23,439 nt of DNA from a virus (Duplodnaviria > Heunggongvirae > Uroviricota > Caudoviricetes): the IMG/VR virus record IMGVR_UViG_3300045988_013110, positions 1 to 23,439 of that record; one strand, 5' to 3'. This document shows, piece after piece, positions 10,984 through 18,299 of the stretch; the first letter of the stretch is position 1, and every line of letters starts with the position of its first letter. Position numbers and translations under genes: made by a program. The notes below the pieces were generated by a model that saw only the letters and a program-made list of their open reading frames with translations, was not told the DNA's origin and did no database searches.

Positions 10984-11032
10984 CATGTCACGAGTGGGTT
11001 ATGCATGATGAATTTGATGGGTTTTGAATACT

Positions 11033-11102: not shown

Positions 11103-11701
11103 TGATGCCTGCTGAACCTAAAACCTATAAACGCAAATCAACGCAATTTAAGCCACTAACAGCAATGCAGGAGGCTTATTGCCAGTCATACATCAAAACG
11201 CCTGAAAACCAGACTCAGGCTGCGATTAATGCAGGATTCTCCCCAAATACAGCGGCAGTTAAAGCCAGTGTCATGATGCGCGATGAACGCATTCAGAAAC
11301 GGATTGCCGAGTTGATGGAGGAGCGCAACAAACGAATGCGCGTCAGTGCTGATTACGTTCTCATGCGCCTGGTGGAGATCGACCAGATGGACGTGATTGA
11401 CATTCTCAACGACGATATGAGCATCAAGCCGGTCTCGGAATGGCCTAAGGTCTGGCGGCAGTACCTGACAGGTTTCGAACTGGCCGACATGTTCGAAGGC
11501 CGTGGAGACGAGAAAGAGCTGGTTGGCATCCTCAAAAAAATTAAATGGCCTGACAAGGTGAAGAACCTCGAACTGATTGGTAAGCACGTCGACGTCAACG
11601 CATTCAAAGAACGCCTGGATGTTAATGTGAATGTGACAATTGCTGATCGCATAGCGGCAGCCAGGAAGAGACTGAAAGAACGTCAGGATGGCAATCAGTG
11701 A
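11102..11701 (+). CDS. terminase small subunit
   Basis: Start set at ATG 11102 because the track start at 11024 is a TTG lying upstream of the terminator. HTH-like segment LTAMQEAYCQSYIKTPENQTQAAINAGFSPNTAAVKAS is typical of small terminase subunits. Confidence 0.8.
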   Translation: MMPAEPKTYKRKSTQFKPLTAMQEAYCQSYIKTPENQTQAAINAGFSPNTAAVKASVMMRDERIQKRIAELMEERNKRMRVSADYVLMRLVEIDQMDVIDILNDDMSIKPVSEWPKVWRQYLTGFELADMFEGRGDEKELVGILKKIKWPDKVKNLELIGKHVDVNAFKERLDVNVNVTIADRIAAARKRLKERQDGNQ

Positions 11702-13173
11702 CAGATACAGCGTTATCTCCTGAAGAGCAGTTAATCGAGGATATTGCAGGGTTCACTCACGATCCGCTTGGCTATGCCCTCTATGCGTTCCCATGGGGGG
11801 AAGAGGGGACTGAACTGGCACATGCCACCGGCCCACGTCAGTGGCAGGCTGATGCGTTCCGAGAGATACGTGATCACCTGCAGAATCCAGAGACGCGATA
11901 TCAGCCGCTTATGCTGGCACGTGCTTCTGGTCACGGTATTGGTAAATCCGCATTCATCTCAATGCTGATCAACTGGGGCATGTCCACTTGCGAGGATTGT
12001 AAGGTCGTGGTGACCGCCAACACCGACAACCAGCTACGAACGAAGACCTGGCCGGAAATTATCAAGTGGTCAAACCTTGCTATCACGAAAGACTGGTTTA
12101 CCTGTACCGCTACCGCGATGTACAGCAATGACCCTGGGCACGACAAGCGGTGGCGAGCTGACGCAATCCCCTGGTCTGAGCACAACACTGAGGCATTCGC
12201 CGGACTACACAACGAGCGTAAACGCATCATTGTGGTATTTGATGAAGCGTCGAACATTGCGGATCTGGTGTGGGAAGTTGCCGAGGGTGCGCTAACGGAC
12301 GAAGACACTGAGATTATCTGGGTGGCTTTCGGAAACCCTACACGTAACACCGGGCGTTTCCGTGAATGTTTCCGCAAATACAAACACCGCTGGAAAACTG
12401 CGCAGATTGACAGCAGGACGGTGGAAGGCACCAACAAACAGCAGTTGCAGAAATGGGTTGATGACTACGGGGAAGATAGCGACTTCGTTAAAATCCGTGT
12501 GCGTGGCATATTCCCTGATGCATCTGAATTGCAGTTTATCCCTACCGGTCTTACTGACGAGGCAATGAAACGGGTGGTAACCGCTGCGCAGGTTGCACAT
12601 GCTCCGGTGATAATCGGTGTTGACCCGGCATATTCAGGCGTTGATGACGCGGTGATATACCTGCGGCAGGGGCTACACAGTAAGGTGCTGTGGACTGGCA
12701 ACAAGACTACCGACGATCTGATTATGGCGAAGCGTATCGCTGACTTTGAAGACCAGTATCAGGCTGACGCGGTGTTCATCGACTTCGGTTACGGAACCGG
12801 TTTGAAGTCAATCGGTGACGGCTGGGGTCGTACATGGCAACTTGTTCCGTTCGGTGGCGCGTCTACTGACCCGCAGATGCTCAACAAGCGTGGGGAGATG
12901 TTCAACTCATGCAAGACATGGCTGAGGCTGGGCGGCATGCTGGATGACCAGGAAACAGCGGACGACCTGTCGGCGGCAGAGTACAAAGTTCGAGTGGACG
13001 GTAAAATCGTTATCGAACCGAAGGAAGATATCAAGGAGCGGCTTGGGCGTTCGCCGGGTAAAGGCGATGCGCTACTGCTGACGTTTGCTTTCCCGGTCTC
13101 GAAACGCATAAATATACCAGGACAGCAAAGCCAGCAGGGAAGGGCCATTACAGATTACGATCCCTATGCTTAA
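11698..13173 (+). CDS. terminase large subunit
   Basis: 491 aa; Walker A-like GHGIGKS; GTG start overlapping the TerS stop (GTGA). Confidence 0.9.
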   Translation: MTDTALSPEEQLIEDIAGFTHDPLGYALYAFPWGEEGTELAHATGPRQWQADAFREIRDHLQNPETRYQPLMLARASGHGIGKSAFISMLINWGMSTCEDCKVVVTANTDNQLRTKTWPEIIKWSNLAITKDWFTCTATAMYSNDPGHDKRWRADAIPWSEHNTEAFAGLHNERKRIIVVFDEASNIADLVWEVAEGALTDEDTEIIWVAFGNPTRNTGRFRECFRKYKHRWKTAQIDSRTVEGTNKQQLQKWVDDYGEDSDFVKIRVRGIFPDASELQFIPTGLTDEAMKRVVTAAQVAHAPVIIGVDPAYSGVDDAVIYLRQGLHSKVLWTGNKTTDDLIMAKRIADFEDQYQADAVFIDFGYGTGLKSIGDGWGRTWQLVPFGGASTDPQMLNKRGEMFNSCKTWLRLGGMLDDQETADDLSAAEYKVRVDGKIVIEPKEDIKERLGRSPGKGDALLLTFAFPVSKRINIPGQQSQQGRAITDYDPYA

Positions 13174-13221
13174 TCCGCTGCTGGGGATAATGTCGTTGAT
13201 ATCCTCTGATGAGGATAAAAT

Positions 13222-13250
13222 AAAGCCCGCCAAATGCGCGGGCTTTATTT
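13222..13250. terminator. bidirectional terminator between TerL and the reverse-strand gene
   Basis: Stem AAAGCCCGC / GCGGGCTTT followed by ATTTTT on the plus strand and a T-rich tract on the minus strand. Confidence 0.6.
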
Positions 13251-13258
13251 TTAAATAA

Positions 13259-13606
13259 TTATTTCTTGATAATATTTCCAGACATTGTGCTGGCGTTTCC
13301 ACCAACAGTTTCGCAGATTACATCTCCAGACATGGTGTTTACATTTCCCAATACATTGGAACAATGGACATCACCAGACATAGTTTTCACATAATGTGCA
13401 TCACCGCTTACAGTCACTGATCCATTTTCAATCTCAACACCTTCCACGCTTCCATTAATTGTTACGTTAATCTGTCCGTCAAGATTGCTATTTTTTTCGA
13501 CACCATCAACGATCACTTTTCCATTGTTAATCGTAATATGATGACCAGTGAAGTCTTCTCCGTTGACGCTAACGCTAGCACCACGTACGTTATTGATTTT
13601 AATCAT
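13259..13606 (-). CDS. reverse-strand accessory gene: Gly/Val/Asn-rich beta-helix repeat protein (bactofilin-like)
   Basis: 115 aa; repeated G-x-V/I pattern (ITINNGKVIVDGV..INVTINGSVEGVEIENGSVTVSGD..MSGDVHCSNVLGNVNTMSGDVICETVGGNASTMSGN). Only clear opposite-strand gene in the late region, bracketed by its own terminators. Confidence 0.6.
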   Translation of the reverse strand: MIKINNVRGASVSVNGEDFTGHHITINNGKVIVDGVEKNSNLDGQINVTINGSVEGVEIENGSVTVSGDAHYVKTMSGDVHCSNVLGNVNTMSGDVICETVGGNASTMSGNIIKK

Positions 13607-13714
13607 TATAAATCATCCTCTTTTTGAATCGAGATTAACCTCAGGAGATACTATGACATGTTTTTCATGTATGTCGTAATCTGCATCGATATCATAATTG
13701 TGACGTATCACGCC

Positions 13715-13739
13715 AAAAAAAATGCCCGGCGAACCGGGC
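13715..13739 (-). terminator. rho-independent terminator (minus strand)
   Basis: Stem GCCCGG / CCGGGC with loop CGAA; minus-strand T8 run follows. Confidence 0.6.
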
Positions 13740-13816
13740 GAACTGGAAGCAATGAGTTATGCCTTCCGTGGCTGTACTGGTTTACAGCATGAAGCCATCG
13801 CAATGGCGTCCTGCTG

Positions 13817-13859
13817 TAAAAAGGGCGGTGATAGTCCTTCAAGGGAAACCATCACCGCC
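13817..13859 (-). terminator. candidate terminator downstream of the tRNA
   Basis: 9-bp stem GGCGGTGAT / ATCACCGCC with an 18-nt loop, followed on the minus strand by CTTTTTA. The long loop lowers confidence. Confidence 0.4.
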
Positions 13860-13902
13860 AAGCCCCTGGAACTTCTGGCATCACGGTCCTTAGGCGTGAT
13901 TC

Positions 13903-13979
13903 TGGCGTGGCATGCAGGATTCGAACCTGCGACCAACCGCTTAGAAGGCGGTTGCTCTGTCCAACTGAGCTAATGCCAC
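13903..13979 (-). tRNA. tRNA-Arg (anticodon UCU)
   Basis: Hand-folded 77-nt cloverleaf with CCA: acceptor GTGGCAT/ATGCCAC, D-arm GCTC-AGTTGGACA-GAGC, anticodon stem ACCGC/GCGGT with loop CTTCTAA (anticodon TCT), T-arm GCAGG-TTCGAAT-CCTGC, discriminator G. Confidence 0.85.
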
Positions 13980-14301
13980 AACGCTGAGAGCACTTAGCCT
14001 GTTAAGGCGCCACACTTTGTCGCGGCTCCATAAATGCTCTCATCGTTGTACCCTCGTCTCTTCCGAGGCGTCACACCGAATCGCCGGGATGGTGAATCCC
14101 CGTGCGCGGAATAAAACCGCTCGACTTGCACATTCCGGCTACCTGGTTCGTTTGCCACAGCCAGGGAGGGTGCCCCTTAAACGCATCCAGACCGCTATCG
14201 GCGCATGTGCCATACGCCGTACTGCTCAAAATAAAAGCTCACTCCACCTGTTCAATTTAACGACAAGCCAGTCAGGTTAGTAACCGGAATGAACTCTTTG
14301 G

Positions 14302-14316
14302 TTACCTGAAAGGTAA
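14302..14316. promoter_or_regulatory. operator-like site upstream of the virion operon
   Basis: Perfect TTACC-TGAAA-GGTAA; a GGTAA half-site at 14374-14378 sits at the same 62-bp centre offset. Confidence 0.45.
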
Positions 14317-14406
14317 TAATTCGCGCGTTAAATGTCAACTGTCTACGATAAATAAATCATATGTGGTTAAATTGGTAATAATTTAATTGCGTACGGAGTC
14401 ATTGAT

Positions 14407-14627: not shown

Positions 14628-16307
14628 ATGGCGGAAACAACTAAAGAGCGATTGAACAAACAGTTCGCACAACTTGAAAGCGAGCGTCAGTCGTTCGAGC
14701 CGCACTGGCGCGAGTTGAGTGATTACATCAACCCGCGTGGTTCCCGCTTTCTGACTTCTGAGGTTAACCGTAACGATCGACGCAATACACGCATTATTGA
14801 TTCGACCGGGACTATGGCGGCGCGCACTCTCGCCAGCGGCATGATGTCAGGCATCACAAGCCCCGCGCGTCCGTGGTTTCGCCTGGCTACGCCAGATCCT
14901 GAAATGATGGATTATGGCCCTGTTAAGTTGTGGCTTGAGGCGGTGCAGAACCGCATGAACGATATGTTCAATAAGTCGAATCTCTATCAGTCGCTGCCGC
15001 AGTTATACGGAAGCCTCGGCACATACAGCACTGGTGCAATGGCAGTGCTGGAGGATGACGAGGACATCATTCGCACAATGCCATTCCCGATAGGCAGTTA
15101 CTACCTGGCTAACTCACCTCGTGGCAGTGTGGACACCTGTTTTCGCAAGTTCTCTATGACTGTTCGTCAGCTTGTTCAGGAGTTCGGGCTAAATAACGTC
15201 AGCGAATCCGTAAAAAGCATGTGGGAAAGCGGAACCTACGAGAAGTGGATTGAAGTGATGCATTCGGTTTACCCGAACATTGACCGCGATACATCGAAGC
15301 TGGATAGCAAGAACAAGCCATTCAAATCGGTTTATTACGAGGTTGGTGGCGATAACGACAAGTTGTTGCGTGAGTCCGGATTCGATGAGTTTCCAATTAT
15401 GGCTCCGCGCTGGGAAGTTAACGGCGAAGATGTTTATGGATCATCATGCCCGGGTATGCTGGCGCTTGGACCTGTTAAGGCATTGCAGCTTCTCCAGAAG
15501 CGCAAGTCGCAGTTGATTGATAAAGCCACCAATCCGCCGATGGTTGCTCCGAATTCCCTCAAGAATCAGCGTGCCTCCCTTCTTCCTGGCGACATCACGT
15601 ATATCGATCAGATTACTGGTCAGGATGGTTTCAGGCCTGCTTATCTGGTTAACCCCAGTACAGCAGATTTGGTGGCAGACATTCAGGACACCCGTCAAAT
15701 CATTAACAGCGCCTACTTTGTCGATCTGTTCATGATGTTGCAGAACATCAATACCCGCTCGATGCCTGTTGAAGCGGTGATCGAAATGAAAGAAGAAAAA
15801 CTTCTGATGTTGGGGCCGGTTCTGGAGCGTCTGAACGACGAATGTCTTAATCCTCTCATTGACCGCGCTTTCTCGATGATGGTGCGTAAAAACATGCTGC
15901 CGCCACCGCCTGACGCGATGGAAGGTATGCCCCTGAAGGTCGAATACATTTCCGTCATGGCTCAGGCGCAGAAGTCTATCGGCCTGTCCAGTCTGGCGTC
16001 TACGGTCAACTTCATTGGTCAACTTGCGCAAGCGAAACCAGAAGCTCTCGACAAACTCAACGTTGATCAGGCGATCGATGCATTCGCTGATATGTCCGGA
16101 GTGTCTCCAACCGTCATTGTTCCGCAGGAACAGGTTGAGCAGGCTCGCCAGCAACGGGCACAGCAACAACAGCAGCAACAAATGATGGCGATGGGGATGG
16201 CGGCGGCACAGGGTGCCAAGACGCTAAGCGAAGCTAAAACTTCGGATCCGAGTGTTTTGTCAGCTATGGCGAATGCAGTTAGTGGTCAGGGTGGGCAATC
16301 ACAATGA
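14628..16307 (+). CDS. portal / head-to-tail connector (podovirus, T7 gp8-like)
   Basis: 559 aa. N-terminus and Gln/Ala/Met-rich C-terminus (QQQQQQQMMAMGMAAAQGA...) resemble the T7 connector by recollection. Confidence 0.8.
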   Translation: MAETTKERLNKQFAQLESERQSFEPHWRELSDYINPRGSRFLTSEVNRNDRRNTRIIDSTGTMAARTLASGMMSGITSPARPWFRLATPDPEMMDYGPVKLWLEAVQNRMNDMFNKSNLYQSLPQLYGSLGTYSTGAMAVLEDDEDIIRTMPFPIGSYYLANSPRGSVDTCFRKFSMTVRQLVQEFGLNNVSESVKSMWESGTYEKWIEVMHSVYPNIDRDTSKLDSKNKPFKSVYYEVGGDNDKLLRESGFDEFPIMAPRWEVNGEDVYGSSCPGMLALGPVKALQLLQKRKSQLIDKATNPPMVAPNSLKNQRASLLPGDITYIDQITGQDGFRPAYLVNPSTADLVADIQDTRQIINSAYFVDLFMMLQNINTRSMPVEAVIEMKEEKLLMLGPVLERLNDECLNPLIDRAFSMMVRKNMLPPPPDAMEGMPLKVEYISVMAQAQKSIGLSSLASTVNFIGQLAQAKPEALDKLNVDQAIDAFADMSGVSPTVIVPQEQVEQARQQRAQQQQQQQMMAMGMAAAQGAKTLSEAKTSDPSVLSAMANAVSGQGGQSQ

Positions 16308-17312: not shown

Positions 17313-18299
17313 ATGGCTGTTAAAGGCTTAACTGCGCTAACGCTGGCTGACTGGGGTAAGCGCGTCGATCCAAACGGGAAAGTCGATAAGATTATCGAGC
17401 TTCTCGGTCAAACTAACCCGATCCTTCAGGATATGCCTTTTGTCGAAGGGAACCTTCCTACCGGACACCGAACCACCATTCGTTCTGGTTTACCTTCAGC
17501 TACCTGGCGTTTGCTGAACTATGGCGTACAGCCAAGCAAATCAACCACAGTGCAGGTAACCGATTCCGTTGGCATGCTGGAAACCTATGCTGAAGTCGAT
17601 AAGTCACTGGCTGATCTGAACGGCAATACCGCTGAATTCCGCCTGTCTGAAGACCGCGCATTTATTGAAGCGATGAATCAGCAGATGGCGCAGACGCTGT
17701 TTTATGGTGATTCCAGCGTTAACCCTCAGCAGTTTATGGGACTGTCCTCCCGCTATTCCAGCCTGTCTGCGGGTAATGCTCAGAACATCATTGATGCTGG
17801 TGGCACGGGTACAGATAACACCTCAATCTGGTTAGTGGTGTGGGGCGAAAACACCGTGCATGGCATCTTCCCGAAAGGGAAGAAGGCTGGCATCCAGATG
17901 GAAGATAAAGGCCAGGTGACACTGGAAGATGCTAATGGCGGCAAGTACGAAGGTTATCGCACCCATTACAAATGGGACAACGGACTTGCTCTGCGTGACT
18001 GGCGTTATGTTGTTCGCATTGCAAACATCGATGTCAGCAATCTTTCAGAACCATCCTCTGCCGCAAATATTGCCAAGTTGATGGTTAAGGCACTGCATCG
18101 CATTCCAAACCGTGGCATGGGCCGCCCGGTGTTCTACATGAACCGCACTGTAGGCCAGGCTCTTGATCTGCAATCTCTGGAGAAAACATCTCTGGCTATC
18201 AGCGTAAAAGAGACTGAAGGCGAGTGGTGGACTTCATTCCGTGGTGTACCAATCCGTGAAACTGATGCGCTTCTGGAAACAGAAGCCCGCGTGGTGTAA
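17313..18299 (+). CDS. major capsid protein
   Basis: About 328 aa after the scaffold gene; AGAGGA Shine-Dalgarno 8 nt before ATG 17313; a stable hairpin and a terminator follow the capsid block. Confidence 0.65.
   Translation: MAVKGLTALTLADWGKRVDPNGKVDKIIELLGQTNPILQDMPFVEGNLPTGHRTTIRSGLPSATWRLLNYGVQPSKSTTVQVTDSVGMLETYAEVDKSLADLNGNTAEFRLSEDRAFIEAMNQQMAQTLFYGDSSVNPQQFMGLSSRYSSLSAGNAQNIIDAGGTGTDNTSIWLVVWGENTVHGIFPKGKKAGIQMEDKGQVTLEDANGGKYEGYRTHYKWDNGLALRDWRYVVRIANIDVSNLSEPSSAANIAKLMVKALHRIPNRGMGRPVFYMNRTVGQALDLQSLEKTSLAISVKETEGEWWTSFRGVPIRETDALLETEARVV

Follow-up and report, generated by a model that had tools for sequence, protein, structure and literature searches.

The window analysed here, a stretch of 23,439 nucleotides, is an epsilon15/phiV10-type (Uetakevirus-like) prophage of Escherichia coli IAI39. 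Its late region carries a short minus-strand gene with TerL on one side and a tRNA-Arg(UCU) gene, then the portal gene, on the other (Table 1). The open reading frame starts with ATG, and a Shine-Dalgarno sequence read directly from the DNA lies 8 nt 5' of it. A CDS with the same coordinates, encoding a product of 100% amino acid identity, is annotated in Escherichia phage TL-2011b as F365_gp23 (gp23), and the IAI39 chromosome has a CDS at matching coordinates, WP_000590811.1, named ‘hypothetical protein’. At the nucleotide level, positions 13200-13730 of the window are 100% identical to the IAI39 chromosome, and a stretch of ~1.8 kb around the gene is 98.4% identical to TL-2011b. The product matches PHROG 3163 with an E-value of 7e-37, and because this match comes with 1,096 homologues in a word-indexed search and 4,442 clusters in an exhaustive profile search, the reading frame is a real gene and not a chance occurrence. 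All other minus-strand ORFs of at least 90 residues downstream of position 11024 are embedded in longer plus-strand ORFs, which are annotated genes of TL-2011b (annotation compared to approximately position 17700). The sole other minus-strand feature of the late region is the tRNA-Arg(UCU) gene.

Table 1. Features in and around the antisense cassette of the late region (window coordinates)
Feature	Position	Strand	Description or basis
TerL gene	11698..13173	+	
Bidirectional intrinsic terminator, common to TerL (+) and the antisense gene (-)	13217..13251	both	Folding, A-run/U-run flanks
Exchangeable cassette differing from phiV10	13228..13715		Pairwise alignment with phiV10, annotation, Pfam, composition
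β-solenoid protein ORF, PHROG 3163	13259..13606	-	115 aa, 11.9 kDa, pI 5.1; no transmembrane segment or signal peptide
Truncated repeat coil 3 and basic tail, aa 107-115: TMSGNIIKK	13262..13288	-	Alignment A1: T107, M108, S109, G110 conserved
Repeat coil 2, aa 91-106: TMSGDVICETVGGNAS	13289..13336	-	Alignment A1: T91, M92, S93, G94, D95, C98, G103 conserved
Repeat coil 1, aa 75-90: TMSGDVHCSNVLGNVN	13337..13384	-	Alignment A1: T75, S77, G78, D79, V80, C82, V85, G87 invariant or at least 90% conserved
Shine-Dalgarno sequence AGAGGAT	13615..13621	-	Read from sequence
Candidate sigma-70 promoter ACGACA, 16-nt spacer, TGT-CATAGT (extended -10)	13650..13677	-	By eye; putative
Near-palindrome GTGACGTATCAC	13700..13711		Between the U8 terminator and the candidate -35
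Insulating terminator GCCCGG-UUCG-CCGGGC + U8, upstream of the antisense gene	13716..13739	-	Folding/sequence scan; stops minus-strand transcripts from tRNA-Arg
83-aa ORF (gp24 in TL-2011b, p04 in phiV10)	13722..13973	+	Probably a spurious annotation
14-bp hairpin between tRNA-Arg and the antisense gene	13824..13859	-	Terminator-like
tRNA-Arg(UCU)	13903..13979	-	
Stretch of ~430 bp with short overlapping ORFs	13980..14406		ORFs of 52-87 aa
Promoter-like site	14316..14345	-	
Portal gene	14628..16307	+	

The gene forms part of a compact cassette in which an insulating terminator, a candidate promoter, the Shine-Dalgarno sequence, the ORF and a bidirectional terminator follow one another. The hairpin on the TerL side has a folding energy of -21.4 kcal/mol on the plus strand and -21.7 kcal/mol on the minus strand (z-scores of -4.2 and -5.2), with U-runs on both strands; since it folds equally well in both directions and is bordered by A- and U-runs, it could terminate transcripts of both TerL and the antisense gene. 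The same hairpin gives sub-threshold matches to attenuator-leader families of Rfam, again on both strands. On the side of the tRNA gene, the cassette is bounded by a GC-rich hairpin with a run of eight U residues, and a further hairpin lies between this element and the tRNA. The GC content is 37% across the cassette, compared with 51-56% in the TerL and tRNA/portal flanks, and the cassette is a horizontally acquired, foreign and self-contained unit.

A consensus promoter scan with a threshold of 9/12 returned no site upstream of the antisense gene, and the candidate that we identified by eye is weak, scoring 8/12 against the consensus. Its extended -10 element is nevertheless retained, at an equal distance from the start codon, in three diverged alleles (TGT-CATAGT here, TGG-CATAAT in L018 and TGC-TTTAAT in L020). 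These alleles, which share 100%, 66% and 55% amino acid identity with the protein studied here, all occupy the slot downstream of TerL in the antisense arrangement. From this conservation we infer a candidate promoter, one that would be consistent with transcription in the lysogen. The near-palindrome GTGACGTATCAC directly follows the U8 terminator and immediately precedes the candidate -35; in the upstream region of the 66%-identical allele (L018) it reads GTGACATGTCAC. It may serve as an operator or belong to the context of the terminator. The initial annotation had proposed an antisense accessory gene between TerL and the portal, the only well-supported opposite-strand gene of the late region, insulated by terminators and likely expressed from the lysogen. 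The family match, together with the annotations in TL-2011b and IAI39, upholds the gene, and the nesting of the other minus-strand ORFs its singular orientation, the tRNA aside. The two hairpins agree with the proposed insulation. The promoter-gene-terminator layout of a moron, with an extended -10 common to three alleles, likewise fits expression from the lysogen, the promoter itself being putative.

Alignment with phiV10 indicated near-identity up to approximately position 13227, resuming from 13716, and in phiV10 the intervening slot is occupied by an unrelated antisense gene, p03 (L002, 2278-2649), of the N4 gp49/Sf6 gp66 family (PF13876). The phiV10 gene resembles ours in position, antisense orientation, similar size and the lack of an assigned function, but its sequence family is unrelated to the β-solenoid protein. 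Other occupants of the slot include a 64-aa antisense ORF in SPN1S (L010, 1073-1267) and a 201-aa antisense ORF in EC.W1-9 (L011, 1273-1878). As different antisense cargo is found at one slot in phiV10 and other Uetakeviruses, the position just downstream of TerL is a hotspot for accessory cargo, or morons. In L020 and L021, an additional 361-aa gene (L020, 6462-7547), for which no Pfam match was found, follows the β-solenoid gene. The cassette is rare in E. coli, being present in 11 of 5,426 complete genomes.

The features associated with morons that we found here are a terminator, placement between conserved genes, deviant GC content and variability among relatives, along with a putative promoter. 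As in classical phage morons, the cassette is an autonomous unit of deviant GC content between two late genes, with alternative cargo in sister phages. It differs from them in that prophages carry PHROG 3163 cargo far less often than virulent phages and plasmids do, and for this reason a role in lysogenic conversion cannot be assumed.

The neighbouring segment has several features of its own. The tRNA-Arg(UCU) gene lies inside the late region and is followed by the two terminator-like hairpins listed in Table 1. The tRNA segment has been conserved in Klebsiella phages as well as in phiV10-like and Salmonella SPN1S-like phages, and it accounts for the many megablast matches to Synechococcus phages. 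The 83-aa plus-strand ORF annotated as gp24 in TL-2011b and p04 in phiV10 overlaps both terminators and runs antisense through the tRNA; it has no Pfam match and no PGAP call in IAI39, and is probably a spurious annotation. Between the tRNA and a 68-aa epsilon15p03-like ORF is a stretch of ~430 bp that holds only short overlapping ORFs, none of them annotated in the relatives examined. It is 75-81% conserved in Salmonella and Klebsiella phages and gave no Rfam match at E≤1. A promoter-like site is also present on the minus strand (positions 14345-14316).

The 115-residue product has a net charge of approximately -5 and lacks any hydrophobic segment. Its maximum Kyte-Doolittle value over 19 residues is 0.62, a transmembrane segment occurs in only 1 of 263 relatives, and the median pI of the family is 5.1; because of these properties the protein is predicted to be soluble and cytoplasmic. 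DNA mimicry was considered and set aside, as the family is only mildly acidic (median charge -3.3). Glycine, valine and asparagine make up 48 of the 115 residues. Three in-register 16-residue units, the last of them truncated, are conserved across the family in alignment A1, and these C-terminal coils follow the consensus T-M-S-G-D-[VI]-x-C-x-x-V-x-G-x-V-x. Residues M92, S93, G94, S109 and G110 are invariant, the repeat T, D, V and C are at least 90% conserved, and the N-terminal part of the alignment contains an invariant V-D-G. In the wider family the motif T-[MVT]-[SN]-G-[DN]-[VI]-x-C is present in 3-4 copies, and most members share the net-basic C-terminal tail. No tandem repeats were detected at the DNA level at the gene; the 16-residue units are ancient protein repeats.

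AlphaFold2 predicts an all-β solenoid (pLDDT 86) in which an irregular N-terminal β region is followed by three 16-residue coils, and the product can be modelled with confidence as a single-chain β-solenoid. A structural role is probable for the conserved inward-facing M/V/C/V/V ladder and for the T-x-S-G-D turns. Comparison of the model with solved structures placed it near a putative pectinase (3lyc; score 7.3, 2.2 Å over 86 residues), a Ca-dependent antifreeze protein (3p4g; 7.2), Ag43 (7koh; 6.9), TibA (4q1q; 6.7), the C-terminal domain of MinC (1hf2; 6.4) and a putative adhesin (4ygu; 6.2), with the bactofilin 6ria at rank 28 (5.7). A Foldseek search of the model against the PDB gave nothing significant, nor did sequence searches of solved structures with the single sequence or the family profile. 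Among predicted structures in BFVD, viral homologues match the model with TM scores of 0.82-0.94, as does, less closely, one 199-aa protein named ‘Bactofilin’ in UniProt (E 2e-6, TMq 0.54). Giant-virus proteins of Sylvanvirus, Klosneuvirus and Fadolivirus (A0A3G5AK49, A0A1V0SLU0 and A0A7D3R166) are also matched by Foldseek, with E-values of 1e-6 to 1e-9 and 24-32% identity, so mobile elements of bacteria may not be the only carriers of the PHROG 3163 family or of its fold.

The initial annotation had noted Gly/Val/Asn-rich repeats and likened them to those of bactofilins, with the prediction of a β-helix as a check. The composition, the three repeats and the AlphaFold2 model bear out the first and last of these points; the likeness to bactofilins did not withstand comparison. 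The protein gave no match to PF04519 at E≤10 in Pfam and no match in NCBIfam. A single-sequence phmmer search matched 6ria at E 0.29, a match that was lost with the family profile. We also aligned A1, which comprises 56 family members, with a bactofilin profile (A3) of 38 proteins, all of them PF04519; the full-length bactofilin of an Acetoanaerobium replicon, used as seed, had given 42 PF04519 proteins. The hhalign probability was 9.1%, over 30 columns. The bactofilin consensus lacks the TMSGD-C signature, and the coil period of the PHROG 3163 protein is 16 residues. Bactofilins (PF04519; BacA, CcmA and Thermus 6RIA) are likewise small, cytoplasmic, Gly/Val-rich β-helical proteins with a core of similar size, but they differ in repeat signature and period and show no sequence or profile kinship, and the PHROG 3163 protein has neither their proline-rich tails nor their N-terminal membrane-targeting sequence. 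We rejected homology on these grounds; as judged by the sequence and profile comparisons, the protein is not a bactofilin, and the likeness is one of fold class only.

Searching Pfam with the 56 members at E≤1 returned weak matches to 40 families, the commonest being the DUF4097 ‘Toastrack’ family (17 of 56 members, best E 0.0016), followed by FapA and YabP with three members each; bactofilin was absent from the 25 most frequent. The query itself matched none of the Toastrack models (DUF4097, DUF2154 and DUF2807), and the best relative, P0131, reached 19.3 bits, the gathering cut-off being 22.9. Toastrack is the nearest neighbour in sequence, with all scores below threshold. Toastrack domains (LiaG, the LiaF C-terminal domain, YvlB and VraT) have at least 200 residues and an intertwined N-terminal region of seven strands, are usually fused to transmembrane segments and belong to envelope-stress operons, whereas the PHROG 3163 proteins stand alone at ~115 residues and are carried by phages and plasmids. 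The usual Toastrack fusions (PspC, LiaI-LiaF-TM or other transmembrane segments) are absent from this stand-alone protein, and none of the neighbourhoods examined contains Psp or Lia genes. We file the protein under neither bactofilin nor Toastrack.

The family to which it belongs is very large and uncharacterised, with no Pfam model, solved structure or defence-model match. The exhaustive profile search was conducted on clusters at 50% identity with a cut-off of E≤1e-3, and 1,729 of the clusters recovered are at E≤1e-10. Members nearly always stand alone at ~115 residues, and the extensions of the longer relatives have no Pfam or PDB match. Our literature searches, which used the protein accessions, PHROG 3163, bactofilin with prophage and IncX4 with the PGAP name, returned nothing. 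Carriers of the family are virulent phages, whose hosts may be Gram-negative or Gram-positive, as well as temperate phages, conjugative plasmids and giant viruses. By tblastn it was found in 161 phage records, mostly of large virulent phages, which include KVP40-like Vibrio phages, Vequintavirinae of Klebsiella, Proteus and Raoultella, Bastille-like Bacillus phages, Erwinia, Serratia, Yersinia and Cronobacter phages of ~350 kb, and Acinetobacter phages. These phages are mostly virulent jumbo, T4-like, Vi1-like or SPO1-like phages, with the gene in early or accessory arrays. The IMG/VR sample comprised 146 confirmed stretches, of which 80 loci were kept, and 185 plasmids carry the family, 110 of them conjugative. 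The suggestion that such cargo is unusual for phages is not supported by these counts. Across species-representative genomes, members occur sporadically and are dispersed over many phyla, CPR bacteria included, as fits carriage on mobile elements.

In KVP40 and Klebsiella phage DP the homologue has RNA ligase 2 on one side and rIIA/rIIB on the other, in Bacillus and Acinetobacter phages it is found within long arrays of small hypothetical genes, and in Vibrio phage 234P10 it is flanked by exonuclease genes. In one Enterobacter prophage the homologue is on the late strand and is flanked by the scaffold and capsid genes. Of 79 IMG/VR loci, 58 have the gene in the same direction as both its neighbours and only 6 have it antisense to both, the latter being the layout of the lineage of the present phage. 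After dereplication to 31 groups, these 79 loci disclosed no conserved partner gene. The top neighbour family, Tad2-like (PF11195), occurs within ±6 genes in 5 of the 31 groups, with DNA methylases and DUF4406 next, and within ±3 genes it accounts for only 1 of 148 neighbour proteins. A Pfam census of those 148 proteins showed scattered replication, recombination and accessory functions (among them RecT, dUTPase, methylases, Tad2-like and DUF4406), and each family was confined to at most two proteins.

The plasmid homologues were confirmed as members by the A1 profile (E 1e-20 to 1e-47). On IncI2 plasmid pUIH-1 (L094, 5923-6339) and IncX4 plasmid pBS512_33 (L095, 4839-5213), they are backbone genes in a co-directional array of small genes. 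The order in IncX4 is a J-domain protein, several hypotheticals, the family member, a hypothetical, a hicB remnant, taxA and taxC, and from gene order we infer that the IncX4/IncI2 homologue is in the leading region. RefSeq/PGAP names these plasmid proteins ‘phage tail protein’ or ‘tail-associated lysozyme’; neither name is backed by a model in NCBIfam or Pfam, and both are probably propagated misannotations. The possibility that the plasmid homologues are RiPP precursors was rejected, since their TigB matches are weak (E 1e-3, 19 bits against a cut-off of 70) and no modifying enzyme is nearby.

The β-solenoid protein has no catalytic motif or enzymatic signature. Because such a signature is lacking, no partner gene is conserved and the gene occurs in contexts of early or constitutive transcription, a binding or sequestering role suggests itself. 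Our preferred, though tentative, reading is that the protein is a cytoplasmic binding module for host takeover or for counter-defence and establishment, rather than a part of the virion or an exclusion factor specific to lysogeny; we hold this at somewhat less than even confidence. The gene would be transcribed by the host RNA polymerase, immediately or constitutively, whether in the early arrays of phages, in the small-gene arrays upstream of the relaxosome genes of plasmids, or from an autonomous promoter in the prophage. Its product would then act in the host cytoplasm as a rigid β-helical binding surface, and this surface may bind a bacterial component that is widely conserved, sequestering or occluding it. 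Anti-defence functions are enriched among the genes of plasmid leading regions, and ~10% of the uncharacterised leading-region families analysed have phage-associated annotations (PMC11541004), which makes a host-takeover or counter-defence role plausible; the PHROG 3163 family is absent from the supplements of that study under the names searched. Several observations speak against our preferred reading: the link with anti-defence genes is weak, and the antisense, self-promoted layout seen here is typical of lysogenic conversion. The Enterobacter homologue between scaffold and capsid genes is a further point against it, as is the weakness of the candidate promoter by consensus. A bolder and rather doubtful version of it is that the TMSGD-repeat mini β-solenoid is a pan-mobile-element effector, expressed at or just after entry, that neutralises a conserved bacterial factor, either an immune component or, through mimicry of a docking platform, the PspA/Toastrack envelope-stress network.

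A rival explanation, in line with the initial annotation, is a lysogenic-conversion moron, expressed constitutively from its own promoter, which would protect the lysogen through abortive defence or superinfection exclusion. In its favour, the gene runs antisense to the late operon and has its own Shine-Dalgarno sequence, a conserved extended -10 and terminators on both sides; it is of low GC content, and three diverged alleles share the same antisense arrangement in the Uetakevirus cargo-hotspot slot. The wider family makes this explanation unlikely. Most members reside in strictly virulent large phages, where they are co-directional and early, or on conjugative plasmids, so protection of a lysogen would not apply to them. 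The protein also lacks the membrane segment of many exclusion proteins, and a search of PADLOC-DB 2.0 found no match to a defence system at E≤1. A role in the virion, as a small β-helical spike, needle or decoration protein, is suggested by a glycine that recurs every ~8 residues, reminiscent of the C-terminal repeats of T4 gp5, by the position of the Enterobacter homologue and by the PGAP and author annotations as ‘phage tail protein’ and ‘tail-associated lysozyme’. We consider such a role extremely improbable, given that the PGAP names are without model support, that the gene is antisense to the structural operon here, and that homologues are found on conjugative plasmids, which make no virions, and within the early arrays of virulent phages.

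Two further explanations draw on the fold. If the protein were a free, soluble copy of the sub-membrane docking β-helix of LiaF, LiaG, YvlB or VraT, it could titrate or rewire Psp/Lia-type envelope-stress signalling during infection or transfer. The Pfam matches to Toastrack are, as described above, all sub-threshold and none comes from the query, the family profile retrieves no solved Toastrack structure and Foldseek against the PDB offers nothing significant. Moreover, the envelope-stress systems of the hosts are very different across taxa, and adjacency to the rII genes may merely reflect placement in the early region; we regard such mimicry as quite unlikely. Less probable still is a bactofilin-like polymer, in which β-helices stacked end to end would form cytoplasmic filaments that reorganise the host cell. 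Besides the failure of every sequence link to PF04519 and 6ria, the 16-residue period and TMSGD-C signature are not found in the bactofilin consensus, and the charged, basic C-terminal tail would be expected to disfavour end-to-end stacking.

In conclusion, the antisense gene belongs to a known kind, a phage moron that encodes a small β-solenoid; its family is unexpectedly widespread, and mechanistically there is nothing surprising as yet. For the window, the bactofilin label is corrected and the slot downstream of TerL in Uetakeviruses is identified as a hotspot for accessory genes. The family is carried by clinically important elements, including EHEC-associated prophages and the backbones of IncX4 and IncI2 plasmids, which also bear resistance genes. 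A small, strongly conserved, stand-alone β-helix that conjugative plasmids, prophages and virulent phages alike have kept makes a good candidate for a general factor in host manipulation or counter-defence and, if the notion of a pan-mobile-element effector is true, would represent a structurally new class among proteins for counter-defence or establishment.
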